A stretch of DNA of 64,000 nt from an uncultured Acidaminococcus sp. (GTDB taxonomy: Bacteria > Bacillota > Negativicutes > Acidaminococcales > Acidaminococcaceae), in the NCBI GenBank assembly GCA_905213155.1, contig CAJMHI010000001.1:11111-75110 (forward strand), given 5' to 3'. Made by a program: the position numbers and the translations under genes. Positions 24,646 through 41,725 of this stretch are shown piece by piece. The notes beneath the pieces were generated by a model. It was not told where the DNA came from, searched no databases, and was given only the letters and a program-made list of their open reading frames with translations. Every line of letters starts with the position of its first letter. Positions within the stretch are counted from its first letter, which is position 1.

Positions 24646-24673
24646 AAGTGACATAATATAAAAAATGCATAGA

Positions 24674-24721
24674 AAAAACGAGGAAAAGAGACGTTAGCAA
24701 AAATATCTTTTCCTCGTTTTT
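24674..24721. terminator. Bidirectional terminator
   Basis: AAAACGAGGAAAAGA/TCTTTTCCTCGTTTT. Confidence 0.8.
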
Positions 24722-24740
24722 GTACTTTTAGGATAGGGAA

Positions 24741-25370
24741 TCAAAGGGTACGGAAGACGGCGATGACGCGGCCTTTAATTTCAATATTGTCCGTGCCCAC
24801 AATGGGGTCATAGGCTTCGTTCTCTGGCTGCAAGCGGATTTGTTTCAGTTCCCGGAAGTACCGCTTAACAGTGGTTTCTTCCCGATCAATCAGGGCGACT
24901 ACGATATCCCCGTTGGTGGCATAATTCTGCTTCCGGACGAAGATATAGTCATGATCCAGGATACCGGCATTTTTCATGCTGTCACCTTCTACCACCATCA
25001 TGAACACATCTTCTCTGCAGCCAATCAGATCCAGTGGAATGGGGTAGGTGTCCTCAATATTTTCTACTGCCAGCATCGGATCTCCGGCATGCACGGCTCC
25101 CACCAGGGGAACCGGAACCATGCTTTTTTTGCGCCAGCCAACTTCCTGGGTAAGCCCATAGGTACGGGGCTTTTCCGGATCCCAGGTGACAAAACCCGCT
25201 TCTGCCAATTTTTTGAGGTTGTTGTGAACGGAGGCGCTGGAAGAAAGGCCCACGGCTTTTCCGATTTCCCGTACGGACGGAGGATAGCCGTTAGAAAAAA
25301 TATATTGTTTGATAAATTCCAGAATACTGCTCTGCCGTGCGTTGATGACTTTGCTGGGTTCTTGTTCCAT
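24741..25370 (-). CDS. lexA: SOS repressor LexA
   Basis: GYPPSVREIG, VHAG (Ala-Gly cleavage site), GDSM, TVK. Confidence 0.97.
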   Translation of the reverse strand: MEQEPSKVINARQSSILEFIKQYIFSNGYPPSVREIGKAVGLSSSASVHNNLKKLAEAGFVTWDPEKPRTYGLTQEVGWRKKSMVPVPLVGAVHAGDPMLAVENIEDTYPIPLDLIGCREDVFMMVVEGDSMKNAGILDHDYIFVRKQNYATNGDIVVALIDREETTVKRYFRELKQIRLQPENEAYDPIVGTDNIEIKGRVIAVFRTL

Positions 25371-25458
25371 GATTTCCGTTCTCCTTGTATATCACTAGAT
25401 TAGTCTGGTTTTGGTTCCGAGCTGTGCAAAATGGGCACACAGGCCCTAAATCAAATAA

Positions 25459-25500
25459 AGTATAACAAGGATTTTACCGCCTGTCAAACAGGCGTTTGAC
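25459..25500 (-). promoter_or_regulatory. lexA promoter with overlapping palindromic operator
   Basis: Minus strand TTGACA-17-TGnTATACT; GTCAAAC-AGGC-GTTTGAC (25483-25500) overlaps the -35. Confidence 0.75.
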
Positions 25501-25538
25501 AAAAAAGACTCCCCGAGGGGAGCCTTTTGCTGGGAGGT

Positions 25539-26492
25539 CTATTTTACGAACAGACTGTCCACATCCACTTTCTTTTCCATCATGCCGGATTCCACCAAAA
25601 AGTCCTGCGTTTTTTTCAAAGAAGCAATGGCTTCCGGTGTAATCTCCATGCTGAAGTCATACAAGGGCGCCATATCTTTAACCGCCTGCAAGGGTAAATC
25701 CGTCGCCTTGGCGGTCATGTTTTCTGCCGCAGTGGGGTTTTTCTTAATAAAGTCCAGGGTTTCTTTCTGGACTGCCAGGAAGGTATCCACCAGATCTTTA
25801 TGTTCTTTATAAAATTTTCCGCTGACAGCTGTAACGGTAAGGCCGGACACCAAGTTTTCACCCGTCGTAACGATATGGGCCCCTTTCCTTTCCATGGTGT
25901 AGGCCATAGGGCCGGCAAGAAGTGCACAATCGGCGCTGCCATTGATCAGGGCTGCTGCGGCCTGGGGAATGCCCATATTCACAAACTTAACGTCTTTCAT
26001 GGAAAGGCCGCCTTGTTTCAGATAGGCTACCAGCAGTTCGTTTAAAATCGTTCCTTTAGGCCCGGCAATGGTCTTTCCTTTTAGATCTGCAGGGCTTTTG
26101 ATGGTAGTGTCCTTGGAAAACAGACGGAAAGCCTTCGGTGCCTGAGAATACAGGCTGACGATTTTAATATCGGCCCCGTTGGCAGCGGATAAAAGGACGG
26201 AAGAACCACCGACGCAGTTCAAGAATTGGATATCGCCGCTGGCAAGGGCGGCAGTTTGGTCGGCTCCGGAAGTAATGGTGGAATAGCTGGCGGTAATATC
26301 TTTTTCCTTGAATTTCCGCTCAAAGCTTTGCTGCTGTTTCTCCACAATGGATGGGATATTAAGCGGCGCCTGTACATAGGTTAGGCTGACCTTATCCACT
26401 TTGGAAGAAAGCGGGTTACTGCAGCCGCCTACGATGGCTGACGCAGCTAGTAAAAATACGCAAAGTGCGGCGCTCCACTTTTTTTTTATCAT
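25539..26492 (-). CDS. ABC substrate-binding lipoprotein, SsuA/TauA/NitT family
   Basis: Lipobox VGGC; ALASGDI, DLKGKTIA. Start approximate. Confidence 0.85.
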   Translation of the reverse strand: MIKKKWSAALCVFLLAASAIVGGCSNPLSSKVDKVSLTYVQAPLNIPSIVEKQQQSFERKFKEKDITASYSTITSGADQTAALASGDIQFLNCVGGSSVLLSAANGADIKIVSLYSQAPKAFRLFSKDTTIKSPADLKGKTIAGPKGTILNELLVAYLKQGGLSMKDVKFVNMGIPQAAAALINGSADCALLAGPMAYTMERKGAHIVTTGENLVSGLTVTAVSGKFYKEHKDLVDTFLAVQKETLDFIKKNPTAAENMTAKATDLPLQAVKDMAPLYDFSMEITPEAIASLKKTQDFLVESGMMEKKVDVDSLFVK

Positions 26493-26520
26493 CAATGTTA
26501 TCAAATCCTTTCTATGTGAT

Positions 26521-27207
26521 TTATTCCAGGGCAGTAAGCAGCCTGCGCTTTTCCGCTATAAAGACAGGGGATAACAGGTCACGTGCCGTTTTTTCTTCTT
26601 CCAGCCGGGCGCTATAGGCAATGCGGTCATTTTTCAAGACCAGTAAACGGTCGCCTAAGGTCAAGGCTTCGTCTATATTATGAGTCACCAAAATAGTACC
26701 AATCTGTACTTTTTCCTCTAAATGAAGCAGCTCCTGTTGCATCTGCGTCCTGGTGAAGGGATCAAGAGCTGCAAAGGGTTCATCCATGAGAATCATCTGG
26801 CTATGCATGGCCAGCGTTCGTGCGAGAGATGTCCGCTGCTGCATCCCGCCGGAAAGGGCACCAGGATAGAGATCTTGTGCTTTGGTTAAGCCGGTCATCT
26901 GCAGCAGGGATTGCAACTCTTCAGAAGAGTAATGGTTACCCATGCCAAGGGCAATATTTTCTCCGCAGGTCAGCCAGGGAAAGAGTCTTGCTTCCTGGAA
27001 CATCATACCAAGAGTAAGCCCTTCCGGCCGTAGGATCGTGCCGCTGTCCGGCGTCTCCAGCCCAGCCAGTAGCCGTAGCAGCGTCGTTTTGCCGCAGCCG
27101 CTTTTTCCCAGAATCACCGTACAGCGATTTTCGGGAAAGGATGCCTCCAGATGCTGCAAGACGGTATTTGCCCCGTAGGCTTTATTTATATTGTGCAATT
27201 CAATCAT
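26521..27207 (-). CDS. ABC ATP-binding protein, SsuB-like
   Basis: GKSGCGKT, LSGGMQQR, MDEPF. Confidence 0.9.
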   Translation of the reverse strand: MIELHNINKAYGANTVLQHLEASFPENRCTVILGKSGCGKTTLLRLLAGLETPDSGTILRPEGLTLGMMFQEARLFPWLTCGENIALGMGNHYSSEELQSLLQMTGLTKAQDLYPGALSGGMQQRTSLARTLAMHSQMILMDEPFAALDPFTRTQMQQELLHLEEKVQIGTILVTHNIDEALTLGDRLLVLKNDRIAYSARLEEEKTARDLLSPVFIAEKRRLLTALE

Positions 27208-27964
27208 GAGATGCCTTTCGTTCATAGGGCAAAAGCCACCAGGTCAGGCAGGAAAAGATACCATCCAGCAAGAGCCCAAGGGCTCCGATCACTAAAATCC
27301 CAATGATCACTTTATCACTGCGGCTCATAGCCTGTGCGTCCAAAATGAGATAGCCGAGGCCGCTGTCACTGGCTACCATTTCCGCACCGATTATAGCCCG
27401 AAGGCTGTAGCCCATTCCTAGTTTCAGTCCTGTTAAGATATTGGGCAGGGCAGCGGGGAGCCGGATCTTTCGTAAGGTTTCCAACGGGGTAAATCCCAGT
27501 ATTTTCCCCACTTCTAATAATTTACTGTCACAGTGGCGGAAGCCGTCATCCATATTCAGGTACATAGGGAAAAAAGAAGCAAGCACAATAATAATGGTCT
27601 TTGGCAGTTCACCAATGCCAAACCATAAAATCAGCAGCGGAATCAGGGAAATAGGCGGTACATGCCGCAACACTTCTAATATCCCGCTGTACCAGCGGCG
27701 CAGATGAGGATAAAGCAGCCCCAGGCTGCTGCAAATAATGGACAGCAAAAATGCCCAGCCAAAGCCCCACAAAATGCGCCGCAGGCTGATAAGAATGTGG
27801 CGCGGAAGCTCTCCCGTGCGCAGCATTTTATACCCTGTCTGCCAAACTGTTTCGGGAGCGGGGAGAATATAGGCGGTCCAAAGGTTGCCGGCGCTGGCGC
27901 CCTGCCACAAAAGGAGCAGCAGGATAAAAGGGATAAGACTGGTAAGGCTGGTAAAGCGTTTCAT
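27200..27964 (-). CDS. ABC permease, SsuC-like
   Basis: PLLILWFGIGE, LPAALP, AEMVA.GLGY. Confidence 0.9.
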   Translation of the reverse strand: MKRFTSLTSLIPFILLLLLWQGASAGNLWTAYILPAPETVWQTGYKMLRTGELPRHILISLRRILWGFGWAFLLSIICSSLGLLYPHLRRWYSGILEVLRHVPPISLIPLLILWFGIGELPKTIIIVLASFFPMYLNMDDGFRHCDSKLLEVGKILGFTPLETLRKIRLPAALPNILTGLKLGMGYSLRAIIGAEMVASDSGLGYLILDAQAMSRSDKVIIGILVIGALGLLLDGIFSCLTWWLLPYERKASHD

Positions 27965-28027
27965 CCTGTGTCTCCTTTCGTCAGGCTGCATAGAAAAGCC
28001 GCATCAAGCGATGCGGCCTACTGATTG

Positions 28028-29545
28028 TTACGTCTGCGGACTTTCCAGGTCCTTGTCTTTTTCCTTCTTGAAGAATTTCATCACGAAGGGGGAGAGCAGG
28101 GACAACAGGCAAAGGCCCAGCAAAATCTTGCAAATATTGGTAGAAAGGAGAATGCTAAGATCCCCACCGGATAGGCTGAGGCTCCGGCGCAGTCCTCTTT
28201 CGCCCAAGGGGCCAAGAATGAGAGCCAGCACAACGGCGGCGGTATTCATGTTGGTTTTGCGCATTAGGTACCCGATGATTCCGAAGATGAACATGATTTC
28301 TACGTCAAAAACGCTGTTATTGATGGCAAAGGAACCTACTACGCACAGCACAAAAATACAGGGAATCAGGATTGCGTCTGATACCCGGGCAATCTTGGCA
28401 AAAAGACGAGCCCCGATCAGGCCAATCACCAGCATGAAGAACTGGATAAACACAAACCCGCCAAAGAAGGTGTAGGTCATTTCCGCATACTTGGTAAAGA
28501 GCTCCGGTCCTGGCTGCAAGCCGTGAATAATCAGTCCGCCCATAAGCACAGCCGTAACACTTTCACCTGGGATACCCAGGGTCAGTGTCGGAATCAGGGA
28601 GCCGCCGGTTACCGCATTGTTGGCAGCTTCGCTGCCGGCTACCCCTTCCATGGAGCCATGGCCAAAAAGTTCTTTGTGTTTGGAAAAGCGCTTGGCTTCA
28701 TTGTAGCCCATAAAGCAGGCAATGGAAGCGCCGGCGCCTGGTAAAATACCAATGATATTCCCGATAATCCAGGAACGCAGGATGGTGGGCGTCAGCATTT
28801 TCAGCTCGGAGAAGCTAAGAAGAATCTTGTCTTTAAATTTCGCCGCAAGTCCCCGCTGCACAATGGCCTTTTCCGCCAGAATAAAGGCCTGGCTCATGGA
28901 AAAAAGTCCAATCAGGGCACAGGTGATATTGACACCATTATAAAGAGCATCCTGGCCGAACATAAAACGTTCTGCGCCTTCCATAGGATCCATCCCGATG
29001 GTGGAGATTACAAGACCAAAAGCGCCGCTGATCAGTCCCAGAATCATGGAATCTGTATTAATCCCGGCGATAATGGTAAGACCAAAAAGGCTCAGCCAGA
29101 AATATTCAGGACTGCCAAACTCCATAGCAAGGCGTGCCAAAAGCGGTGCGAAAAAGTACAGGGAAATGCAGCTTAATAAACCACCAAAAAAAGAAGCGGT
29201 GCAGGCTGTTCCCAGTGCTTTACCTGCCTGGCCTTTTAAGGTCATGGCATAGCCATCAATGGCTGTTGCAGCAGAAGCCGGGGTACCTGGCGTATGAATT
29301 AAGATGGCAGAAATCGAGCCGCCAAAAATAGCACCGCAGTAAATCCCGCCCAGCATAATTAGCCCCGTGGAAGGATCCATCCCGAAGGTCAGCGGGAGCA
29401 GCAGTGCCACCCCCATGGCAGCAGATAATCCCGGCATACAGCCGATGATAATTCCCATGGTAACACTGGCAGCCATGGTTACGATATTCAGCGGCGTCAG
29501 GGCATTGACCAGTCCCATCAGCATAAGTACATATTGATTATCCAT
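28028..29545 (-). CDS. tctA: Tripartite tricarboxylate transporter permease TctA
   Basis: GCMPGL, PGTPAS, E.ANNA, PTLTLGIPG, GLQPGP. Confidence 0.93.
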   Translation of the reverse strand: MDNQYVLMLMGLVNALTPLNIVTMAASVTMGIIIGCMPGLSAAMGVALLLPLTFGMDPSTGLIMLGGIYCGAIFGGSISAILIHTPGTPASAATAIDGYAMTLKGQAGKALGTACTASFFGGLLSCISLYFFAPLLARLAMEFGSPEYFWLSLFGLTIIAGINTDSMILGLISGAFGLVISTIGMDPMEGAERFMFGQDALYNGVNITCALIGLFSMSQAFILAEKAIVQRGLAAKFKDKILLSFSELKMLTPTILRSWIIGNIIGILPGAGASIACFMGYNEAKRFSKHKELFGHGSMEGVAGSEAANNAVTGGSLIPTLTLGIPGESVTAVLMGGLIIHGLQPGPELFTKYAEMTYTFFGGFVFIQFFMLVIGLIGARLFAKIARVSDAILIPCIFVLCVVGSFAINNSVFDVEIMFIFGIIGYLMRKTNMNTAAVVLALILGPLGERGLRRSLSLSGGDLSILLSTNICKILLGLCLLSLLSPFVMKFFKKEKDKDLESPQT

Positions 29546-29559
29546 AACGTTTTACCCCC

Positions 29560-30018
29560 TTATAGAAATTCCGACAGCAGTTCGCCCGGAGGCAGGGGAA
29601 CGTTAAGAAATTCGCTAAAGACTATATAAATGAGCGCCAAAAGTACCACCAGGGTAAGCACAATGTATTTTTGGGGAATATGGAAAAACAGTAGCATGCC
29701 GCCCAGATACAAGATGGCTGCAGGATAAAATCCAATCAGATACATGGCAATAAAAAAAGCGATACAGCTGCCAGCCATGACAAAAAACTGTTTGGGCAAA
29801 AACCCCTTCCATACTTCTGGCAGATCATTGACAAGCGCCAGATGACCGTGGCAGCTGACCACCATTTTGATCAGCTGCAGCACGGTCAAAACCGCCAAAA
29901 GGCCAATGACAAATTTGGGATAGTGCTGGGCTGCCGGCGGCAGTTCCAGCGTTTGGTTGTAGAAGAACCCACAAAATCCCAACATGAAAATAACAATACA
30001 AAGTTCCGATTTTTTCAT
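29560..30018 (-). CDS. tctB: Tripartite tricarboxylate transporter TctB
   Basis: 4-5 TM, F..FLNVPLP.G; lies between tctA and tctC. Confidence 0.85.
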   Translation of the reverse strand: MKKSELCIVIFMLGFCGFFYNQTLELPPAAQHYPKFVIGLLAVLTVLQLIKMVVSCHGHLALVNDLPEVWKGFLPKQFFVMAGSCIAFFIAMYLIGFYPAAILYLGGMLLFFHIPQKYIVLTLVVLLALIYIVFSEFLNVPLPPGELLSEFL

Positions 30019-30049
30019 AGTTGAAGTTCCTTACAGGCGGTTTCGTTTC

Positions 30050-31045
30050 TTATTGGTAGAGTTTGGATACCACATCTTTACAGAAGGCCAGTTGTTCTTC
30101 AATTAGCTTGCCCAGTTCCTTGCTGTCCATGTAGTGGAGTTCCAGACCAGCGTTCTTGTGATCCCGGATGGTCTGTTCGTCGGTCATGGTCAGTTTGAAG
30201 GCATCTTCATAGAACTTAATGATATTGGCCGGAGTTCCTTTGGGAGCAACCAGGGCACGGGCAGAGCCATACCATTTGTTGTAGTAACCCAGTTCACCCA
30301 AGGTGGGAACATCTTTCAGGGCATCCACCCGTTTTTCGCTGAATACGCCCAGCACTTTCAGTACGGCATTGTTGCCACGGATCAGGGATTCAATATCGCC
30401 CAGCTTAGCACAGGAGAAATCTACTTCGCCTTGACGCAGTGCCAGCAGCTGATCCGCTGTGCCGCCATAGGGGACTGCATTGTACTTAAAGTCGGCAGAT
30501 TTGGCTAAAAGCTGTGCAGCTGTATGGTTGGAAGCCTGTACTCCGTTGGTGGAAGCTTTCAGCTGACCAGGATGGGCCTTGGCATACGCAACTAAGTCTT
30601 TCAGGCTGTTAAACTGGCTGTCTTTTTTCACGACCACGACACCAGTTTCCAGCAGGTGGTTGGCAATGGGAACAATGCTCTTGTCGTCAAAGGCAGCGCC
30701 TTTTTGCAGGGCCAGGGTGGTGTAGGTGGGCAGGTTGATGAACCCGATGGTGTAGCCATCCGGCTTGGCTTTTACCAGTTCCGTCCAACCGATTTTGCCG
30801 TCCGCACCGGGTTTATTTTCAATGATCAGGGTATGGCCAATGAATTTTTCTGCATCCTTGCACAGTACCCGCGCCCCGGTATCTGTGCCGGACCCCGCCT
30901 TATAGGCCACAATCACTTTGATGTCTTTCTGGGGCTTCCAGGCATCTGCGGACTTTTGGTCTGTTTTGTTTCCCCCGCCGCAGGCTGCTGCTGCCAGTGC
31001 CGTGGCACACAGGGCGGAAGCCGCCAACAGTTTCTTCAATTTCAT
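30050..31045 (-). CDS. tctC: Tripartite tricarboxylate transporter substrate-binding lipoprotein TctC
   Basis: Lipobox AAAC; AGSGTD..AR, ENKPGA.G, PDGYT, DVPT..E.G. Confidence 0.92.
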   Translation of the reverse strand: MKLKKLLAASALCATALAAAACGGGNKTDQKSADAWKPQKDIKVIVAYKAGSGTDTGARVLCKDAEKFIGHTLIIENKPGADGKIGWTELVKAKPDGYTIGFINLPTYTTLALQKGAAFDDKSIVPIANHLLETGVVVVKKDSQFNSLKDLVAYAKAHPGQLKASTNGVQASNHTAAQLLAKSADFKYNAVPYGGTADQLLALRQGEVDFSCAKLGDIESLIRGNNAVLKVLGVFSEKRVDALKDVPTLGELGYYNKWYGSARALVAPKGTPANIIKFYEDAFKLTMTDEQTIRDHKNAGLELHYMDSKELGKLIEEQLAFCKDVVSKLYQ

Positions 31046-31221
31046 CTTCCTCATCCTCCTTAAATAATGTAACAATTTTACAACTTTCATTGTATCCCGG
31101 CTGCGTCCAGAAACCGTCAGTCCTATGGAAAACTGCGCATCCCCTCATGCGTACACAATGATGCTTGCTGCTTTGATTATACTGGCAACCTATAGAAAAG
31201 TAAAGAAAGAAAAACCCTGCA

Positions 31222-31243
31222 AAATGTTGCTAAAGCAACATTT
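31222..31243. promoter_or_regulatory. Perfect palindromic operator candidate between divergent genes
   Basis: AAATGTTGC-TAAA-GCAACATTT. Confidence 0.55.
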
Positions 31244-31340
31244 ATTTTCTGCTTTCAAGGTATACTTATAGTGTAAGATGTTTTTCGGATATAATGAGAA
31301 ATAAAGGAATCGTAAAAGCTGTAAAGAAAGGAAATAGACC

Positions 31341-32879
31341 ATGGAAAAAGTATTGGATCTGTCTAAAAGCGTGTATGAACTGTGCCGGGAATATCCGGAA
31401 CTGATTCAGATCATGGCAGAGCTGGGGTTTAAGGAAATCTCGCAGCCGGGGAATCTGGAGCATGTAGGAAAGATGATGACCATCCCCAAAGGCTCCGTGA
31501 TGAAACACATCAGCATGAAAAAGATTGTGGATACGCTGCGGGAAAAAGGATTTACCCTGACGGCTCAGATGCCGGACTTCCCTGGTATGATGCCTAATTC
31601 TGCAGCAGCTCCTACCGATCCGGAAAAACAAAAACGGATTGCCCTACTTACCAGTTATATAAAGAGACTGGGGGAGGGAGAAGATCTGGAAAGTGTGCGC
31701 AAAGATTTTGTGGAGCATTTTAAGGACGTAGATGCCGCGGAAATCGCCCAGGCAGAACAGCAGCTACTGCGCAGCGGCGTTCCCCTGGATGATGTCACGA
31801 AATTGTGTGATGTTCATGCCGCCCTGTTTAAAGGGAAGACCCGGGCAGAAAAGATTGCCAATGCAGAAAAAATGGTGGCAAAGACCTGGCCGGGCGGGAG
31901 TGCACCCAAAGCGGCCCCGCTGCGTCGCCAGGACGGAGCAGACCTGACGTATCAAAAGTTGCAAGAGATTGCGGGACATCCTCTCCAGATCTTTCACCTG
32001 GAAAATGAAGCCATTGGGCAGGAGATTGCTAAGCTCCGGGCTGCCATGACTACGGGGGAAAACTACCTTCCGCAACTAGACAAAGTGCGGCAGCTGGCCA
32101 TCCATTATGCGAAAAAAGGGGATTTGATCTATCCGCCGCTTAAAGAAACCTACGGTTTTTCCGGTCCCTCCGATGTGATGTGGAGCGTGGATAACGAGAT
32201 CCGGGATGCACTGCGGCAGCTTTCGGCAGAAGCAGCGGCAAACCCAAAGCGCCTGCAGGAAACCCAATGGCGGGAAAGCTTGGAGCAGGCACTGACACGG
32301 GCAGAGGAAATGATTTACAAGGAAGAGAACATCCTGCTGCCCCTGTGCGCCAAGAACTTTTCAGAAAAAGAATGGAAGCAGATGGCACGGGATATGCAAG
32401 GATATGAGTCCTGTTTGATTCAGCCGGTGCCTTTGTGGAAGGAAGCGGAGGAACCAGAACCAGTGCCCGTTGACAGTGGGGACCGTATTACCTTGTCATC
32501 CGGCAGTTTTACCAAAGCAGAATTGGAAGCGGTGCTGAATACGATTCCCCTGGAACTCACCTTCGTGGATGCGGAGAATATCAACCGGTATTTTAACGAT
32601 AACGGGGAACCGAAACTCTTTAAACGTCCCCTGGCAGCACTGGGACGGGAAGTATGGTCCTGCCATCCGGTGAAGATTCAACCCATCGTGCGGCGTGTCA
32701 TTGAAACCCTGCGCAGTGGGGCAGAAAATTCCGTGGATGTATGGCATACTCGGGAAGGGAAACCTGTGCTCGTTCGGTATTTGGCTGTACGGGATAAGAA
32801 AGGTACATTCCTGGGCGTTTTGGAGACCGTACAAAAATTGGATTTTGCCAAAGCGCATTTCATGCCAGAAACCAAATAA
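31341..32879 (+). CDS. DUF1858/DUF438 + hemerythrin-like + PAS domain protein
   Basis: YPEL...ELGF, AEQQL, LCDVHA, GHP...EN, HYAKK, VMW.VD, KEENIL, FVDA.N..RYF, CHP. Confidence 0.85.
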   Translation: MEKVLDLSKSVYELCREYPELIQIMAELGFKEISQPGNLEHVGKMMTIPKGSVMKHISMKKIVDTLREKGFTLTAQMPDFPGMMPNSAAAPTDPEKQKRIALLTSYIKRLGEGEDLESVRKDFVEHFKDVDAAEIAQAEQQLLRSGVPLDDVTKLCDVHAALFKGKTRAEKIANAEKMVAKTWPGGSAPKAAPLRRQDGADLTYQKLQEIAGHPLQIFHLENEAIGQEIAKLRAAMTTGENYLPQLDKVRQLAIHYAKKGDLIYPPLKETYGFSGPSDVMWSVDNEIRDALRQLSAEAAANPKRLQETQWRESLEQALTRAEEMIYKEENILLPLCAKNFSEKEWKQMARDMQGYESCLIQPVPLWKEAEEPEPVPVDSGDRITLSSGSFTKAELEAVLNTIPLELTFVDAENINRYFNDNGEPKLFKRPLAALGREVWSCHPVKIQPIVRRVIETLRSGAENSVDVWHTREGKPVLVRYLAVRDKKGTFLGVLETVQKLDFAKAHFMPETK

Positions 32880-32886
32880 GATGCAG

Positions 32887-32914
32887 AAAAAGGGCGGCCT
32901 TCGCCGTCCTTTTT
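32887..32914. terminator. Bidirectional terminator
   Basis: AAAAAGGGCGGC-CTTC-GCCGTCCTTTTT. Confidence 0.8.
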
Positions 32915-33050
32915 CGCTGCTCGTAGCTCATGTTCTTTAGGATTTTGTGGTAGCGGCTATGGAGAGGGGAGTGAGTCACCTTTTCCTTGGTAGTACTTTT
33001 TAATAGTTACGCTAGTGTAAAGGATACACCTACCAAGGTTTTATGTTTTT

Positions 33051-33120
33051 TATCCTGACCTTACTTGTACTACCCTGTACTAAACTAACCTATACTAACC
33101 TTACCTAACCTTACCTAACC
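33051..33120 (-). repeat. 14-unit pentamer array (GGTTA/GGTAA-type)
   Basis: Minus strand: GGTTA GGTAA GGTTA GGTAA GGTTA GTATA GGTTA GTTTA GTACA GGGTA GTACA AGTAA GGTCA GGATA. Confidence 0.9.
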
Positions 33121-33142
33121 TACGCCGCGAAATTGACGCAAG

Positions 33143-33200
33143 TGGTTGCGCTATTTGCACATGTGGTTGCGGAATCTGCACTTTTGGTTGCGGAATCGGT
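33143..33200. repeat. Three iteron-like direct repeats, 21-bp period
   Basis: TGGTTGCG at 33143, 33164 and 33185; units 2 and 3 share TGGTTGCGGAATC. Confidence 0.9.
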
Positions 33201-33201
33201 T

Positions 33202-33549
33202 TTACGGGTTGATAAGGTCATACAGGCTGTCCTCGCCCAGACGTACCTGCTTGTGTTCTGGTAAAACGCTGGGGCTGTAGCGGTCTCTTCGAATCTGGTT
33301 ATGCCAAGCCCAATGACGAATAGCCATCACGCCACTGGGAAAGGGCAGCATATAGCCACCTGCCACTAGCGCCTCCACATCCTTTGGTGTACAACCCAGG
33401 AGTCGCGCTAGAGATTTGGGGTTCGTGATAAAGCCGTCATCATCTGCTTCCATGACGCACTGGAGGTAGAGATATTGTGCAGGAAGGGGGAGCTCCAGAA
33501 AATCATCCTGCCGGATCAACTGGATATGTAGCATACGTCGTTTGGCCAT
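33202..33549 (-). CDS. Orphan phage replisome-organizer/replication-initiator N-terminal domain (115 aa)
   Basis: RBS GAAAGGAGG; MAKRRM...DDFLELP..AQYLY......ADDDGF..NP...GVMAIRHW..HNQIRRDRY matches Firmicute phage initiator N-termini. Confidence 0.85.
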   Translation of the reverse strand: MAKRRMLHIQLIRQDDFLELPLPAQYLYLQCVMEADDDGFITNPKSLARLLGCTPKDVEALVAGGYMLPFPSGVMAIRHWAWHNQIRRDRYSPSVLPEHKQVRLGEDSLYDLINP

Positions 33550-33616
33550 AAGGGGCCTCCTTTCGGTATGGGTGCCGGATTGCCCGGCAAATCTATAGGC
33601 GCGCCGCTTAGTACGG

Positions 33617-33702
33617 TATCGTGTGTTCGAACATGCGATAGTATATATAAAACAATCGGGATTGTAAAGGAACTCTAGTTCCCGCGCCAAGAACTGCAGT
33701 TC
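33617..33702 (-). promoter_or_regulatory. Sigma-A promoter with tandem LexA (SOS) boxes
   Basis: Minus TTTACA(33668-33663)-17-TATACT(33645-33640); GAACTCTAGTTC 33670-33681; GAACTGCAGTTC 33691-33702; palindrome TATCGTGTGTTC/GAACATGCGATA 33617-33640. Confidence 0.8.
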
Positions 33703-34049
33703 CTGGCATGAAATTGCGTTCTGTGCTTAGCGAACGTATACTCTTTTTTGAATTTTGAAGAAGAATAACCATGTAGGAAATAACTGGAAAAAACGGAAAA
33801 CAAAATAAAAAAATATGAACATAAAAATGCAACAATATATTTACGTTCGTATTTTGGAGAGAAAAGAAATTTAAAAATTTTTGATAGGGAAATTGTGGCC
33901 GTGCATTTATATCTTCCATCGTGCACAACATTTTTCAACTACCCTAGTCATTATCTATCTGGACAAACTGTCTGATTTCTTTTACAATAAAAGTGAAAAT
34001 CTTGTTTTTATAGGGCGATATAGTAAAAAACGAAGAAAGGATGAGGCAG

Positions 34050-35732
34050 ATGGTCTTGGACGAATACAAACGGTGGGCTGGTACCGATTTATTGGATTTT
34101 GATCTGAATAAAGAACTGCAGGACATTGCAGGGGATACTGCCGCTATTGAAGAGCGTTTTGCTGTGGCACTCCAGTTTGGGACTGCGGGACTAAGGGGTA
34201 TTTTAGGCGCAGGGACAAACCGGATGAATATCTGGGTGGTGCGGCAGGCCACCCAGGGCGTAGCCGACTGGGTAAAGACCCAGGGCGGCACACAAACCGT
34301 TGCGATTTCCTATGACAGCCGGATCAAGGGCTGGGATTTTGCCAGACATGCAGCGGGCGTCCTAGCTGCCAATGGGATTCATGTACGGCTGTATGAAGCG
34401 CTAATGCCGGTGCCGGCCTTGTCGTTTGCGACGCGGTACTATCATTGCAATGCAGGCATTATGATTACGGCCAGCCATAATCCTGCCGCTTATAACGGGT
34501 ATAAAGCCTACGGCCCCGACGGGTGCCAAATGACCGATGATGCGGCCGCTGTGGTTTATGCCTCTATCCAAAAGACGGATGTCCTGACCGGTGCCCGTTA
34601 TATGTCCTTTGCTGAAGGGGTAGCAAAGGGACTCATCCAGTTTGTAGAGGAAGACTGTCTGAAGGCCTTTTATGAAGCGATCGAGTCCCGTCAGGTGCGC
34701 CCCGGTCTTGCAAAAACTGCGGGGCTGAAACTGGTATATTCTCCGCTTAATGGCACGGGCCTTGTGCCGGTAACCAAAGTGCTGAAAGATATCGGAATTA
34801 CTGATGTGACCATTGTGCCGGAGCAGGAATATCCCAATGGGTATTTCACCACCTGCACCTATCCCAATCCGGAAATTTATGATGCCTTGCAAAAAGGACT
34901 GGAACTGGCTAAAGAAAAGAAAGCGGATCTCATGCTTGCTACTGATCCGGATGCGGACCGGGTAGGGATTGCTATGCGCTGCGCCGATGGCTCCTATGAA
35001 CTTGTCACCGGCAACGAGATGGGCGTACTGCTTTTGGATTATATTTGTGCAGGACGGATTGCCGCAGGAACCATGCCAAAGAACCCCGTAGCGGTGATGT
35101 CCATCGTATCCACGCCGCTAGCAGATAAAGTCGCACAGCACTATGGGGTGGAACTGCGTCATGTGCTTACGGGCTTTAAATGGATCGGGGATCAGATAGC
35201 CCAGCTGGAAGCCAAGGGCGAAGCCAAGCGCTTCATTTTCGGCTTTGAGGAAAGCTACGGTTACCTGGCCGGTTCCTATGTCCGGGATAAAGATGCGGTG
35301 GTAACGTCCATGCTGATCTGCGAGATGGCAGCCTATTATCGGAGCATTGGTTCTTCCATAAAACAGCGCCTGGAAGAGATCTATGCCCAGTATGGCCGGT
35401 ATTACAATCAAGTGGATTCTTTCTCATTCCCGGGGCTTTCCGGGATGGAGCAAATGAAAAAGATCATGGAAGGGCTTCGTAACAATCCCCCCAAAGCGTT
35501 TGCAGGAAAACAGGTAGTGAAGGGTCTGGATTATATGCAGGCAGAAACGACGGGTCTGCCCAAGGCGAACGTACTGATTTACCACCTGGATGACGGGTCT
35601 ACGGTTGTGGTCCGGCCTTCTGGCACGGAGCCCAAAATCAAGACCTACTTCACCACACTGGGCAAAAGCCTGGAAATTGCAAAAACAGAAAAAGAAAAAC
35701 TGGCCGCAGCCGTCAAACCATTTCTGACGTAA
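34050..35732 (+). CDS. pgm: Phosphoglucomutase/phosphomannomutase
   Basis: FGTAGLRG, TASHNP, DPDADR, FEESYG, RPSGTEPK. Confidence 0.93.
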   Translation: MVLDEYKRWAGTDLLDFDLNKELQDIAGDTAAIEERFAVALQFGTAGLRGILGAGTNRMNIWVVRQATQGVADWVKTQGGTQTVAISYDSRIKGWDFARHAAGVLAANGIHVRLYEALMPVPALSFATRYYHCNAGIMITASHNPAAYNGYKAYGPDGCQMTDDAAAVVYASIQKTDVLTGARYMSFAEGVAKGLIQFVEEDCLKAFYEAIESRQVRPGLAKTAGLKLVYSPLNGTGLVPVTKVLKDIGITDVTIVPEQEYPNGYFTTCTYPNPEIYDALQKGLELAKEKKADLMLATDPDADRVGIAMRCADGSYELVTGNEMGVLLLDYICAGRIAAGTMPKNPVAVMSIVSTPLADKVAQHYGVELRHVLTGFKWIGDQIAQLEAKGEAKRFIFGFEESYGYLAGSYVRDKDAVVTSMLICEMAAYYRSIGSSIKQRLEEIYAQYGRYYNQVDSFSFPGLSGMEQMKKIMEGLRNNPPKAFAGKQVVKGLDYMQAETTGLPKANVLIYHLDDGSTVVVRPSGTEPKIKTYFTTLGKSLEIAKTEKEKLAAAVKPFLT

Positions 35733-35760
35733 AAAACAGAATGTCCCTGTGCCGGGTATA

Positions 35761-35792
35761 AAGCGCAGCAGTCTTAGGGTTGCTGCGTTTTT
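35761..35792 (+). terminator. Intrinsic terminator
   Basis: AAGCGCAGCA/TGCTGCGTTT followed by T run. Confidence 0.7.
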
Positions 35793-35872
35793 GCGTTTCA
35801 TTTGACGTTCACACAAAATTTTCCGGTTTGTGGTAAAATAAAGTGTTAAAATTGAGCAGAGGGGAATAAGCA

Positions 35873-37204
35873 TTGATGAACCAGAACTACACCATTTTAA
35901 ATTATGGCTGCCAGATGAATGAAAGCGATTCGGAGCATTATGCAGGGCAATTATCCGACCTGGGGTATGCATATACCGACGATTATCATAACGCCGATAT
36001 TATCCTGATCAATACTTGCTGCGTGAGAGAAAGCGCAGAAAAACATATTTTAGGCAAAATCGGTGAGATGAAGCAGCTAAAACGGGAACACCCGGACCGG
36101 GTATTATGCGTAACCGGCTGCATGGCACAGAAAAACGGGGATGCCTTTATGAAAAAATATCCCCAGGTGGATCTTTTGATTGGGACGGCCCACGTCAATA
36201 ACTTCAGTGCCATTTTGCAGGACTATCTCAGCAGGGAAAAACGCAAGGCGGGCATCTATACGGACCTTACCCTGGCGCCCAAGGAATTTGAAGGGCATTT
36301 TGTACGAAAAAGCAGCTATGCAGCCTGGGTTCCTATTATGTACGGCTGCAATAATTTTTGTACCTACTGCATTGTTCCCTACGTACGGGGCAGGGAGCGG
36401 AGCCGGGAGCCGGAAGCCATCTGTGAGGAAATCCGTAAAGCCGTAGCCCAAGGGTATAAGGAATTTACCCTGCTGGGACAGAATGTAAATTCGTATGGGA
36501 AGGACACCATGGGCAAAAGCGCCTTCAGTGACCTTTTGAAAATGGTGGATCAGATTCCCGGTGTGGAACGGATCCGCTACATGACCAGTCACCCTCGCGA
36601 CATGAGCGAGGAACTGGTACGCACCATTGCAGAAAGCCGGCATGTGTGCAAGCATTTTCATATTCCGGTGCAAAGCGGCAGTAGCCGGATTATGGAGAAA
36701 ATGAACCGGGGCTATACGCGGGAATCCTATCTGCATTTGGTTAAAACCATTCGGCAGTATGTGCCAGAAGCCGTACTGACGACGGATATCATTGTGGGAT
36801 TCCCAGGGGAGACAGAAGAAGATTTTGCACAGACCATGAGCCTTTTTGACCAGGTCAGCTACGATGCGGCGTACACCTTTATGTATTCCAAACGCTCGGG
36901 AACACCGGCGGCTACCATGGAAGCGCAGGTGCCGGATGACGTAAAAAAAGATCGTCTGAACCGGCTGATGGCGCTTCAGAACCAACACAGCCTGCAACAT
37001 AACCAGCGTCTGGTAGGGAAAACCCTTCCCGTGATTGTGGAGGGACTATCCCACAACAATAACAAAATGTGGAGCGGCCGAACCGATGGCAATAAATTGG
37101 TCCTGTGGCCTGTGGAAGACCGGATTTTAAATCCGGGTGACATCGTACCTGTGAAGATGGAGATGGCACAGACCTGGCTGCTTAAAGGACGTGCTGATTT
37201 ATGA
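35873..37204 (+). CDS. miaB: tRNA-i6A37 methylthiotransferase
   Basis: YGCQMNE.DSE, NTCCVRE, GCNNFCTYCIVPY.RG, TRAM C-terminus. Confidence 0.96.
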   Translation: MMNQNYTILNYGCQMNESDSEHYAGQLSDLGYAYTDDYHNADIILINTCCVRESAEKHILGKIGEMKQLKREHPDRVLCVTGCMAQKNGDAFMKKYPQVDLLIGTAHVNNFSAILQDYLSREKRKAGIYTDLTLAPKEFEGHFVRKSSYAAWVPIMYGCNNFCTYCIVPYVRGRERSREPEAICEEIRKAVAQGYKEFTLLGQNVNSYGKDTMGKSAFSDLLKMVDQIPGVERIRYMTSHPRDMSEELVRTIAESRHVCKHFHIPVQSGSSRIMEKMNRGYTRESYLHLVKTIRQYVPEAVLTTDIIVGFPGETEEDFAQTMSLFDQVSYDAAYTFMYSKRSGTPAATMEAQVPDDVKKDRLNRLMALQNQHSLQHNQRLVGKTLPVIVEGLSHNNNKMWSGRTDGNKLVLWPVEDRILNPGDIVPVKMEMAQTWLLKGRADL

Positions 37205-39807
37205 CAACCTTAACACCGATGCTGCAGCAATACCTGGATATTAAAAAAGACCATCAGGATGAGCTGCTGTTTTTCCGCCTGGGAGATTTCTACGAACTGT
37301 TTAACGAAGATGCCGTTACAGCATCCCGGGAACTGAACCTCACTTTGACGCACCGGGCGGGGGGCAAGGTGGGCGCCAGTGCCACCATGCCCATGTGCGG
37401 GGTACCTTTCCATTCTGTGGATGGGTATCTGGCCAAATTAATTAAAAAAGGTTACCGGATCGCCATTTGTGACCAAATGGAAGATCCTAAAAAAGCAGTG
37501 GGCATCGTCAAACGGGAAGTGACCAAAATTATCACCCCGGGGACCGTGCTCAGCGATGCTGTTTTGGAAGAAAATCACAACCAGTATCTGGCCTGTCTCA
37601 TGCGGGACAAGGAGTCTCTTTGTCTTTCTTTTGCCGATGTTTCCACAGGGGAATGTGCCTGGTACCTGGCAGAGGGAAAAAATCGGGAGGAAGCGGTCCT
37701 GGATCAGATCTATCGCATCCAGCCGGCGGAACTGGTCCTTACAGAAGACGCTGACCGCTTCGGGAAGCTTTTGCCTAAGATTTTGCAAAAACACCCGGAG
37801 TGTATGGTGAACCAGTTTGTTCCGCTGCCGAAAGAGACCTATTTCACACAGCATTTCGGCGCGGACGATGCGGCAGGGGAGCGGCCTTTTGTGCGGCGCA
37901 CCGTGGAAGTCATGCTGGAATACATCCACGAAAATGTAAAAAGCGATCTGGCGCAGATCAACCGGCTCCGGGAGATTACAACCGATCATGTGATGGATCT
38001 GGATGCCACAGCCATTCGTAATCTGGAACTGGTTAAAAATATGAAGGACGGGACCCGTCACGGAACGCTCCTGGATGTGCTGGACTATACCCAAACAGCC
38101 ATGGGGGCACGTCAATTGCGGCAGTGGGTGGAATCCCCCCTCCTTGATCCGGCAAAAATTACCGGGCGGCAGCAGGCCATTGGGGAACTCTTAGAACATG
38201 CTACCAGCCGCAACGCACTGGGAGATGCTTTAAAGGAAATTACCGACCTGGAACGGATTCTTTCCCGGGTAGAAGTTGGCTCTGCCAATGCACGGGATAT
38301 GGCGGCCTTGCGCAGTGCACTGCAAGCGCTGCCCGCTGTAAAACAACTGCTGGCATCCCAGCAAGGCGGACTGCTCCATGCCCTGGATGGCCGTATTTCC
38401 CTGCATGAAGAAGTGCTGGATACCCTTGAGAGGGGCATTGTGGATGACCCTCCGTTTACGGTGCGGGAAGGCGGTATGATCCGCAAAGGATTTAATAAGG
38501 AGCTGGACGAAGTCCGGGATATTGCAGAACATAATACGGTCTGGATGCAGCGCTTTGAGCAAAAAATCAAAGAAGAAACGGGCATCAAAACCCTGAAGGT
38601 AGGCTATAACAAAGTCTTTGGCTACTATATTGAGGTCAGCAAAGGGCAAGTCAGCCAGGTGCCGGATTCCTTTATCCGCAAGCAGACGCTTGTGAATGCA
38701 GAACGGTATATTGTCCCGGAGCTGAAAGACTTTGAAAATAAGATTCTTTCTGCCAAAGAAAAGATTCAGCAGCTGGAATATTATCTCTTTAATGAAATCC
38801 GTCAGCAAATCCGGGAACACCTGGTGCCCATCCAGCGGACAGCCCGTGCCATCGGCGCCCTGGATGTGCTGTATTCTCTTGCTATGGCGGCTTTTAAAGG
38901 GAATTATACCTGTCCGCGCCTTAATGCCCGGCAGGAAATCCGTATCCGGGACGGGCGGCACCCGGTAGTAGAAAAATTGCTAGAACGAGAATTGTTTGTT
39001 CCTAATGACACTTATCTGAACCAGACAGATGAACGCCTGATGATTTTAACCGGCCCTAATATGGCCGGCAAATCCACCTACATGCGGCAGGTAGCCTTAC
39101 TCGTTCTCATGACACAGATGGGCAGCTTTATTCCCGCACGGGAAGCGGATATCTGCCCGGTGGACCGGATTTTTACCCGGGTGGGGGCAAGCGATGATTT
39201 AGCCACCGGGCAAAGTACCTTTATGGTGGAAATGAACGAAGTGACCAATATTTTAAAATTTGCCACCAGCCGCAGTTTGATTATCCTGGACGAAGTGGGC
39301 CGGGGGACCAGTACCTATGACGGGATGGCCATCGCCCGGGCCGTGGTGGAATTTATCAACAAAAAGATCAGCGCCAAGACATTATTTGCCACCCATTACC
39401 ATGAATTGATCGAGTTGGAACAACTAGAGCCTGGCATCAAAAATTATTCCGTAGCCGTTAAAGAAAAAGGCAAGGACGTGGTATTTCTGCGGCGAATTGT
39501 GCCCGGCGGCACGGATAAAAGCTATGGGATCCACGTTGCCAAACTGGCAGGCCTGCCGGGCAAAGTGGTAGAGCGGGCAGAAAAACTGCTGGAGGAATAC
39601 ACCCAAACGGGCGGCAAAGCGCCTGCTATAGCTATGCCGCAGAATATACCGAACGTGCCAGAAGATCCCCAGCCCAGCTTATTTGGGGACAGCATCCGGG
39701 AAACGCTGAAGAGTCTGGATGTGATGACGATGACACCACTGGAAGCCTTAAATACCCTGTATGAGCTCCAGAAAGAAGCAAAACGGGAAGGAGGGATGGC
39801 GGAGTGA
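37201..39807 (+). CDS. mutS: DNA mismatch repair protein MutS
   Basis: GDFYELF, TGPNMAGKS, DEVGRGTS, ATHYHEL. Confidence 0.98.
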   Translation: MTTLTPMLQQYLDIKKDHQDELLFFRLGDFYELFNEDAVTASRELNLTLTHRAGGKVGASATMPMCGVPFHSVDGYLAKLIKKGYRIAICDQMEDPKKAVGIVKREVTKIITPGTVLSDAVLEENHNQYLACLMRDKESLCLSFADVSTGECAWYLAEGKNREEAVLDQIYRIQPAELVLTEDADRFGKLLPKILQKHPECMVNQFVPLPKETYFTQHFGADDAAGERPFVRRTVEVMLEYIHENVKSDLAQINRLREITTDHVMDLDATAIRNLELVKNMKDGTRHGTLLDVLDYTQTAMGARQLRQWVESPLLDPAKITGRQQAIGELLEHATSRNALGDALKEITDLERILSRVEVGSANARDMAALRSALQALPAVKQLLASQQGGLLHALDGRISLHEEVLDTLERGIVDDPPFTVREGGMIRKGFNKELDEVRDIAEHNTVWMQRFEQKIKEETGIKTLKVGYNKVFGYYIEVSKGQVSQVPDSFIRKQTLVNAERYIVPELKDFENKILSAKEKIQQLEYYLFNEIRQQIREHLVPIQRTARAIGALDVLYSLAMAAFKGNYTCPRLNARQEIRIRDGRHPVVEKLLERELFVPNDTYLNQTDERLMILTGPNMAGKSTYMRQVALLVLMTQMGSFIPAREADICPVDRIFTRVGASDDLATGQSTFMVEMNEVTNILKFATSRSLIILDEVGRGTSTYDGMAIARAVVEFINKKISAKTLFATHYHELIELEQLEPGIKNYSVAVKEKGKDVVFLRRIVPGGTDKSYGIHVAKLAGLPGKVVERAEKLLEEYTQTGGKAPAIAMPQNIPNVPEDPQPSLFGDSIRETLKSLDVMTMTPLEALNTLYELQKEAKREGGMAE

Positions 39808-41717
39808 GTGTACCTGTCAATTTACTGGACCAAAATACCAGCAACCAGATTGCAGCAGGGGAAGTGGTGGAAAAACCGGCTTCTGTGGTTAAAGAGCTGA
39901 TGGAAAATTCCCTGGATGCCGGAGCCAACCGGATTGATGTGAGCATTTTTGCCGGCGGCACGGAATTTATCCAGGTCAAAGATAACGGCAGCGGTATGGA
40001 TGAAAAAAATGCCCGGATGGCCCTCTTGCGTCATGCTACCAGTAAGATCCGCAAAGCTGACGACCTTTTAACCCTCCGTACCCTGGGCTTTCGGGGAGAG
40101 GCGCTGCCCAGCATTGCCTCTGTATCCCATTTCAGGCTGCTTACCCGGGAACCAGAAGCAGAGTTTGGTACCCAAATCACCATAGATGGGGGTGAAGAGG
40201 AAGACGTTGGACAAATGGGCGGCGATGTGGGTACCACCATTACCGTCAAAGATTTGTTCTATAACGTGCCCGCCAGGAGAAAGTTTCTTCGTACCGTTCA
40301 CACGGAAGGCCGCTATATCAGCGAAATTGTCAGCCGTATGGCGCTTTCCCGCCCGGATGTACATTTTACCCTCACTCGGGACGATAAGGAAGTAATCAAT
40401 ACCCCTGGCAGCGGGGATATCTTAGACACCATTGCTTCCTTGTATGGCAAAGAAGTCATCCGTCAGCTTTTAACCGTTGACTATGCCCAGGAGGGGATAC
40501 AGGTAAAAGGCTACATCAGCCGCCCGACGTTGTTAAAAGGCACGCGGCAGTGGCAGACATTATTTGTAAATGGGCGCTGCATTAATAACCGCATGGTCAG
40601 TAAAGCCATAGATCATGCCTACCAGTCTCAAATCCCCAAAGCAGGCTTTCCTTTTGCAGTGCTGGATATACTGGTAGACACCCATGCCATTGATATCAAT
40701 GTTCACCCCCAGAAAAGTGAAATCAAATTTGGAGACGAGAGCGCTGTGTACCGGGCGGTTTACCATGCCCTGACTAACGCCCTGACCCAGCCCATGGCAG
40801 GAAAAACGGCGACCGATGGCAGTGTGGCACTGGCGCAGCCAACGCCGCAGCATTTTTCGGCGGCTCCCGCCCAACCAACACCGGAGACAAGCACGCTTTT
40901 TACCGGAGGCGACCGGGGGAACCAATACCGGTCCCCGTCTTTTGGACGGAGCTTTGCTTCCAGTCCTAATGGCAGTTATGGGCAAATGGTGTGGAAAACG
41001 CCGGACACAATTGCCGAAGATGCTTCCGAGAAGTTCTTTGAAGCCCAGCGGATAACGCCGGAAGATCCCGCTGCAAGCTCTATCACGGAATCTGGCAACC
41101 AGGAAACAGTGCCGGGTGAGGAGTTAGAAGGAACGCTAAGTAGTGGCGTGGATATGATCTGGCCTTTGGGACAGGTGGACCGGGTGTTTATTATCGCCCA
41201 GTCGGAAACGTCCTTGTATCTCATTGACCAGCATGCGGCTCATGAACGGGTATTGTATGATAAATTTGTCCGCCAGCAGCAGGATATTCCCTCCCAGCAG
41301 CTGTTACTCCCACTGTTTCTCAACGTAGCCCGGATGGATGTGGATGCGGTTTCCAATTACCGGGAAGCCTTTTTGCAGCTGGGCGTAGATGTAGAGCCCG
41401 CAGGGGAAACGACCCTGCGTGTTTCTGCGTTGCCGGCGGATGTGCAAAGCGGCCAGGCAGAAGGGTTTATTGAAGATATTTTAACGCTGCTTTCTGAAAA
41501 CAAAAATATTAAAGCCAGCGATCTCAGAGAAAGCGTGCTGCACTACGCCGCCTGCCACTCGGCCATACGAGCCGGAGAGGTGTTAAATATCCGGCAGATG
41601 CGGCAGCTGATTTTGGAACTGTTAAATACAGAACATCCTTTTACCTGCCCCCACGGACGGCCTTGTATGATACAGCTGACCAGTGAGGAATTGTACAGGA
41701 TGTTCAAACGGACATAA
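39804..41717 (+). CDS. mutL: DNA mismatch repair protein MutL
   Basis: IAAGEVV, GFRGEAL, DQHAAHE, CPHGRP. Confidence 0.98.
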   Translation: MSVPVNLLDQNTSNQIAAGEVVEKPASVVKELMENSLDAGANRIDVSIFAGGTEFIQVKDNGSGMDEKNARMALLRHATSKIRKADDLLTLRTLGFRGEALPSIASVSHFRLLTREPEAEFGTQITIDGGEEEDVGQMGGDVGTTITVKDLFYNVPARRKFLRTVHTEGRYISEIVSRMALSRPDVHFTLTRDDKEVINTPGSGDILDTIASLYGKEVIRQLLTVDYAQEGIQVKGYISRPTLLKGTRQWQTLFVNGRCINNRMVSKAIDHAYQSQIPKAGFPFAVLDILVDTHAIDINVHPQKSEIKFGDESAVYRAVYHALTNALTQPMAGKTATDGSVALAQPTPQHFSAAPAQPTPETSTLFTGGDRGNQYRSPSFGRSFASSPNGSYGQMVWKTPDTIAEDASEKFFEAQRITPEDPAASSITESGNQETVPGEELEGTLSSGVDMIWPLGQVDRVFIIAQSETSLYLIDQHAAHERVLYDKFVRQQQDIPSQQLLLPLFLNVARMDVDAVSNYREAFLQLGVDVEPAGETTLRVSALPADVQSGQAEGFIEDILTLLSENKNIKASDLRESVLHYAACHSAIRAGEVLNIRQMRQLILELLNTEHPFTCPHGRPCMIQLTSEELYRMFKRT

Positions 41718-41725
41718 GGATAACT

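Follow-up and report, generated by a model that had tools for sequence, protein, structure and literature searches.

The window analysed here, a stretch of 64,000 nucleotides from an uncultured Acidaminococcus sp. (genome G000), carries between a DUF438 gene and pgm an insert of about 1 kb, whose parts are listed in Table 1. The boxes, promoter, ribosome-binding site, 115-aa ORF, repeats, 14 pentamers, stem and terminator described in the original prediction were all present in their places on the minus strand, and, as had also been stated, no prophage surrounds the insert: no integrase was found by eye among the ORFs of window positions 24000-42000 or of positions 32000-55663 of contig C6 from the same genome, and no terminal direct repeat was found at the insert. 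Contigs from three public studies (X1, X3 and X4) run across the junctions, which rules out an assembly artefact. The genome holds two copies of the cassette, the window insert and a module on contig C6, which share four matching blocks; the window copy has deletions of about 145 bp, 252 bp (the HTH-type gene) and 1.35 kb (the ATPase gene and most of the sigma gene, giving the junction between the sigma-gene remnant and the DnaC-like gene start). The promoter, the ribosome-binding site, the ORF and the origin were all untouched by these deletions.

Table 1. Features of the insert between the DUF438 gene and pgm (window coordinates)
Positions	Strand	Feature	Basis or remark
32886..32915	.	Terminator of the host DUF438 gene, T/A runs on either side	Present in G016 and G010 without the cassette
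32915..33946	-	Whole insert, a stripped copy of the secF-linked module	Missing from G016; four blocks match G000:C6
32933..32981	-	Sigma-factor gene remnant (last codons), fused to DnaC-like gene start	82% identical to C6:44324-44372; alignment and translation
32985..33038	-	9-bp inverted repeat around a 24-bp segment (32988-33011)	24-mer invariant in 5/5 copies
33051..33120	-	14 pentamers of GGTTA/GGTAA/GTATA type, non-coding	Sequence
33129..33191	-	Three iteron-like repeats, GCAACCA core, 21-bp period	Same core in Tuc2009 origin region
33202..33549	-	115-aa initiator N-terminal domain (Rep2009/PHROG 5708 type), predicted winged helix	ORF intact
33556..33564	-	Ribosome-binding site GAAAGGAGG	Sequence
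33608..33628	-	Remnant of deleted 76-aa HTH-type gene: final six codons with stop	Deletion of about 252 bp
33628..33641	.	Weak LexA-like half-match directly behind the -10 box	Score 7.2; kept in three copies
33640..33668	-	Sigma-A-type promoter TTTACA-17-TATACT	Conserved in C6 and G016; other spacer in ORF-less copies
33670..33702	.	Twin 12-bp palindromes, 21 bp apart, touching the -35 box	33702-33691 and 33681-33670
33731..33884	-	A+T-rich left end of module	77% identical to C6:46908-47055; shortened by a deletion of about 145 bp

In the sister species G016 the corresponding site is empty, with the DUF438 terminator running straight into the pgm promoter, which counts against the original interpretation. 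In G010 the DUF438 gene and pgm are unlinked and the site is broken up; since the window and G010 have nine bases upstream of the pgm promoter in common, the empty state of G016 is only possibly ancestral. The terminator, previously assigned to the cassette itself, is found in both of these genomes without the cassette and therefore belongs to the host DUF438 gene, although it may also end the cassette transcript. The nested stem-loop of the original prediction is present as an inverted repeat, but its reading as an RNA structure was rejected, as none of 19 pairs shows a compensatory change among five copies; Rfam returned a single weak match, far under the gathering score. Of the sequencing runs, the one presumed to be RNA contributed only two short contigs to the stretch, and the ORF was covered by neither. 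A 16-bp inverted repeat (32857-32872/33699-33714) was likewise dropped as an element end or inversion site, because only one of its arms falls within the insert, the other being part of the DUF438 coding end, and because the inner arm recurs in module copies far from DUF438. At a cut-off of E <= 1e-100 no more than 3 of the 17 genus genomes had a match to the type of pgm found here (window 34041-35732), which suggests a clade-specific acquisition.

The 115-aa ORF, for which Pfam has no family, corresponds to the N-terminus of PHROG 5708/8489 (PHROG 5708, E 1.4e-36) and is alike to Rep2009/ori2009 of the lactococcal P335 phage Tuc2009 and to ORF13 of TP901-1, with 41% identity to the Tuc2009 Rep over residues 1-100, confirming its assignment as the N-terminal domain of a phage initiator. 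Structure prediction gave a confident winged helix (pLDDT 91), whose model has a TM score of 0.92 to a siphovirus model. Foldseek against the PDB returned nothing at E <= 0.001, the best rows being N-terminal domains of plasmid initiators (E 0.02-0.05), a wide structure search returned generic winged helices only (Z <= 6.0), and the homodimer prediction scored 0.07.

In both Tuc2009 and the window, GCAACCA-type repeats followed by pentamers sit directly behind the domain, the window cores lying at 33191, 33170 and 33149 within complete repeat units that are only about 71% alike. The phage repeats are in frame within a 260-aa protein, and Rep is reported to bind these direct repeats in its own gene, where they serve as origin (PMC8965321). 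The window ORF differs in being chromosomal, with a promoter of its own, and in stopping at codon 116, before the repeats, with further downstream stops in all three frames, so that the in-frame linker and C-terminal domain of Rep2009-type replisome organizers are absent; one frame of the pentamer array still reads VRLGKVSIG, like full-length phage initiators. Given this likeness, and given that the Tuc2009 repeats form an origin inside their own gene, the origin-like reading of the window DNA is well founded, and the earlier view of the repeats and pentamers as an in-frame origin linker turned non-coding holds. Since the C-terminal domain of the phage relatives is missing, even the whole module may not initiate.

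Short forms of this kind are not typical of viruses. In a set of 50 viral homologs, one of which ran off its contig and was excluded, 47 of the 49 complete ones were longer than 200 aa and the other two had 171 and 179 aa. No viral homolog exceeded 46% identity. Homologs in other genomes were longer than 200 aa in 63 of 77 complete cases (three of 80 were open). A phylum-wide search matched 5 of 401 genomes, the four besides G000 having full-length, prophage-like copies, a metagenome scan returned one distant locus, and the 24-mer had no match in viral contigs. The same initiator family is present in streptococcal satellites.

The gene had been described as an orphan. Contig C6, however, carries a 92%-identical ORF with the identical stop, inside a 4-kb module located after secF (G000:C6 42962-46744) and comprising, in order, a 76-aa HTH-type gene, the initiator, the origin, and genes for an IstB/DnaC-like ATPase, a sigma-like protein, Amidase_2, DUF1659, DUF2922 and YvrJ. 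The HTH label of the 76-aa gene was given by analogy with congeners, as it has no Pfam match of its own. No integrase or virion gene was seen next to the C6 module, and the genome, which is 86% complete, yielded no terminase ATPase. The parent is a phage-derived, capsid-less module of the chromosome, equipped with an HTH protein, a DnaC-like ATPase, a sigma factor and lysis-type genes of its own, and it is not a prophage. The window insert, which has the promoter, initiator, origin and gene remnants in common with the module, descends from it, having lost the lysis-type cassette (amidase-DUF1659-DUF2922-YvrJ); the HTH, DnaC-like, sigma, amidase, DUF1659 and YvrJ genes are found only on C6, with none in cis at the window copy.

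The same module lies at secF in G016, spread over two contigs (C7 and C69), and comparison with it gave dN/dS values of 0.08 for the HTH gene and the ATPase gene, 0.24 for the initiator and 0.26 for the sigma gene. As the C6 and G016 modules keep the same place behind secF and evolve under purifying selection, they are the better experimental target. The regions upstream of the amidase genes (L183, L019, L021, L025, L185, L188, L189 and C6) have in common the conserved motif CTTA(T/C)A-N-AGTGTA, which may be a promoter or a binding site recognised by the sigma factor of the module. Two more DUF2922-like ORFs lie outside the module (G000:C13 15778-15969 and C4 29981-30175), and 40 of 61 relatives have DUF1659. 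Among the neighbours of the modules are restriction-modification, toxin-antitoxin and Cas genes; those of several congeners (L018, L019, L021, L182, L185 and L186) abut type I/II/III restriction-modification or other defence-type genes, at varied chromosomal sites and with no integrase of their own. A replacement of the host helicase loader was rejected, as DciA, the host loader, is present in 5 of 5 genomes.

Parts of this arrangement have counterparts in known systems. The C6 module resembles the S. aureus SroA/SroB pair, a DUF1659-DUF2922 pair under SigS, in having DUF1659-DUF2922 behind a small sigma factor, a pair that the window copy has lost; the available part of that account differs in containing no initiator, origin, ATPase, amidase or YvrJ (bioRxiv 10.1101/2022.10.19.512975). 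Phage-inducible chromosomal islands (PICIs) and the streptococcal satellites are likewise small and carry replication genes without virion genes, but neither G000 copy was seen to have an integrase or terminal repeats in or beside it and, unlike PICIs, the parent module is syntenic between species and has a lysis-type cassette. No prior description of the module or of stand-alone domain-only initiators was found in the literature searched, which included few subscription papers and no supplements.

Within the genus, 7 of 16 congeners had a match. All ten complete ORFs, among them the two of G000, encode 115-189 aa and terminate ahead of the pentamers or on reaching them; seven are followed by the ATPase gene, and three (that of the window and two in G011) are not. 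In a quick tree of 116 columns the genus ORFs form one branch with two contigs labelled Lachnospiraceae (SH-aLRT 95). The short initiator is an ancestral, genus-wide feature and its truncation is old; contrary to the original prediction, it did not arise at the window locus. In two congeners the cassette has a different initiator family, PF09681. The two copies of G011 (L017:9440-10264 and L023:9465-9905) consist of initiator plus origin without the ATPase, in a genome without a DUF1659 match, and in one of them the beginning of the ATPase gene survives with a frameshift. Decay takes other forms in further copies of the genus (G007:C45 and G015).

At one orthologous site, G010 (L066:8522-8935) and G016 (L067:9160-9546) carry the promoter plus origin with no ORF, facing an exonuclease gene and adjoined by restriction-modification and toxin-antitoxin genes. 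These two copies are 89% identical over 361 nt, compared with 58-67% at four-fold sites of the neighbours and 58% in the flank; since a control promoter-bearing intergenic region is just as conserved (90%), this figure indicates constraint and is not proof of origin function. The five copies of the three-species clade all have the palindromes, promoter, repeats, pentamers and 24-mer, with the ORF being optional. In run X1, one contig links a flank of the ORF-less type with 81 nt that match the window origin exactly.

The same domain was also found as a stand-alone gene amid housekeeping genes in uncultured Clostridia. Searches around these genes matched 9 of 101, 12 of 121 and 11 of 81 genomes, in sets that overlap and with prophage-like copies counted. 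At a first site, following the gene of an ABC ATPase or facing that of S1, the gene was present in seven genomes, five with full-length forms (235-293 aa) and two with 114 aa; at a second (beside a HAD hydrolase) in three genomes, with 113-124 aa; and at a third (before DUF1385) in two genomes, with 114-115 aa. The short forms are followed by non-coding, purine-rich, pentamer-like arrays, some without clear repeats, and their synonymous sites are saturated or their dN/dS is 0.06-0.15. The ATACTTAC promoter motif was present in all 12 Clostridia genes examined and a perfect SOS box in none of the 12. In line with what had been foreseen, domain-only forms do recur in Clostridia, stand-alone, outside prophages and under purifying selection, and they make up a real and recurrent, if patchy, class. 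These stand-alone genes (L193, L215, L219, L196, L220, L211, L216, L197, L198, L212, L221 and L217) often occur two per genome, and several short forms have a small hairpin behind the pentamers.

The control of the window gene was reconsidered in the light of its two palindromes. The genome has 10 perfect GAAC-N4-GTTC sites, against 19 expected, and four of the 10 lie in the two copies of the cassette; the twin palindromes are not there by chance. Perfect palindromes were found in three close copies and in one ORF-less copy, but in none of 10 other module promoters; the ORF-less copy of G010 keeps the pair as an inverted repeat that no longer reads GAAC-N4-GTTC. The original prediction considered them SOS boxes. 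The recA promoter of all five congeners examined carries a GAAC-N4-GTTT box between its -35 and -10 elements, and the genus LexA box is (G/A)AAC-N4-GTTT, not GAAC-N4-GTTC (window 25470-25485; recA upstream regions L028-L032). A matrix was built from five recA and five lexA sites, the latter chosen by eye in the window genome and in 4 of 5 congeners, and on this small, partly hand-picked set the training sites score at least 15. Its top hits included, from outside the training set, two sites before what we take, from sequence motifs, to be a Y-family polymerase gene and one before a gene presumed, on the same grounds, to be uvrB. The window palindromes score -1.2 and -2.4, and the weak LexA-like site behind the -10 box scores 7.2, which is not significant genome-wide, 810 sites scoring above 6. 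Some B. subtilis LexA boxes tolerate inner bases like those of the window palindromes. Taken together, the palindromes are probably not LexA sites, and binding of LexA to them is unlikely; they were inherited from the module promoter and do not fit the genus LexA box, contrary to the proposal that the host had placed the gene under LexA. Most likely they are the operator of the module's own regulator, and, judging by position, the HTH protein would bind them.

We next consider what maintains the window copy. Its ORF has a dN/dS of 0.067 at a dS of 0.58 against the C6 copy, far below 1 as had been predicted, and 19 synonymous and 5 non-synonymous changes fall on the window branch (8 changes were not assignable). 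Identity between the two copies is 89% in the origin and 89% in the promoter, and 58% at four-fold sites of the ORF. The exact window protein was found on 61 contigs, the C6 paralog on 62 and the neighbouring genes on 46-83, so the window ORF occurs as often as the genes around it. Since the species is nearly clonal, however, fixation says little and within-species variation cannot separate selection from drift. Moreover, the substitution counts allow the last 14-18% of the window branch to be neutral, for which reason the deletions cannot be dated.

We favour, with a probability of about 0.45, the explanation that the window insert is a co-regulated satellite origin of the whole module. That the ORF is optional while the promoter plus origin is common to the five copies fits a cis-acting site served in trans, and two further initiator-plus-origin copies without DnaC exist in G011. 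Under this model the HTH protein of the whole copy would control the window promoter in trans; on induction, this promoter would provide extra initiator together with transcription across the repeats, an activating step with a precedent in lambda; initiator from either copy would bind the repeats, the ATPase of the whole copy would load the helicase at the pentamers, and the outcome would be local over-replication around pgm. The DNA site is then probably what selection keeps, and the window ORF may be dispensable and starting to decay. Against this explanation stand the empty site of G016 and the broken-up site of G010, the initiator's lack of the C-terminal domain of its phage relatives, and the HTH protein, which has no Pfam match and is assigned to the palindromes by position.

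The main rival, which we consider rather unlikely, is that the window copy is a recent functionless relic: a duplicate would first have shed its repressor and later the genes that do harm, leaving an innocuous rest that is yet to decay, the low dN/dS dating from the time when the copy was whole. The HTH, DnaC and sigma remnants at the junctions agree with such a history, as do the different modes of decay of the other genus copies and the uninformative fixation in a near-clonal species. So does the S23P change in the window ORF, which is hardly ever found among 181 homologs, 93% of them having S/T there. In a profile test, moreover, the five changes specific to the window copy were no milder than random changes (p = 0.12). 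Allele P0037, called only from M33, suggests a 5'-broken copy in one strain, its linkage to a divergent pgm allele being read from their equal longest contigs (41,307). The excess of synonymous changes on the window branch and the conservation of the ORF-less copies over two species nevertheless speak against a relic, as does the sigma remnant, which is more changed than the ORF (3-5 window-specific amino-acid changes in 13-15 codons, while C6 and G016 differ at one), although this last signal is weak because the whole sigma is itself loosely constrained.

A role for the short protein and repeats as a stand-alone DNA-binding regulator or brake, titrating or repressing the whole module or regulating other genes, of the kind that the stand-alone Clostridia genes may play, appears improbable. 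The confident winged-helix model is compatible with it, as are the syntenic stand-alone forms of 113-124 aa (saturated synonymous sites or dN/dS 0.15), some of them having pentamers without clear repeats, and the presence of DciA, which implies that core replication was not replaced. But the short protein is encoded on C6 as well, which leaves the window product without a longer partner that it could antagonise as a truncated form, and the ORF-less copies are kept without any protein. Least likely of all is that the cassette, under LexA control, acts against phage replication as a decoy or dominant-negative inhibitor and so forms a natural defence of the Per type: the repeat core is that of the Tuc2009 origin, of 33 distinct viral homologs 11 have two or more CAACC/GGTTG motifs in the linker and 5 have them in a control stretch, cloned origin plus initiator of Tuc2009/TP901-1 are reported to give resistance (PMC8965321), modules adjoin defence-type genes and a weak LexA-like site exists, but the palindromes score below zero and are absent from the other congeneric module promoters, the genome yielded no terminase ATPase, viral homologs are all at or below 46% identity, and a single chromosomal copy is present.

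Beyond the satellite-origin explanation, we propose as a speculative and rather doubtful extension that the whole module is a domesticated, capsid-less system of run-off replication and lysis, in which the module and its domain-only initiator would over-replicate the stripped copies, acting as chromosomal satellite origins beside acquired or defence genes, after which the cell would open and release the amplified DNA; the 113-124-aa genes of Clostridia would then represent parallel, repeated domestication. Our working analogy is run-off replication in Bartonella, where a conserved phage-derived chromosomal origin amplifies neighbouring variable DNA (PMC2697382). The comparison is one of analogy, and neither the window copy nor the module, both seen in assembled contigs, shows capsid genes.

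Should the window copy prove a mere relic, it would be of value as a dated step in the decay of the module. Domain-only forms were absent from the phages examined, none of the 49 complete viral homologs being shorter than 171 aa, whereas chromosomes carry them repeatedly and under purifying selection. Stripped copies that do fire or titrate would offer a small, testable handle on a widespread and unstudied module, and would mean that a phage initiator can persist without its C-terminal half.
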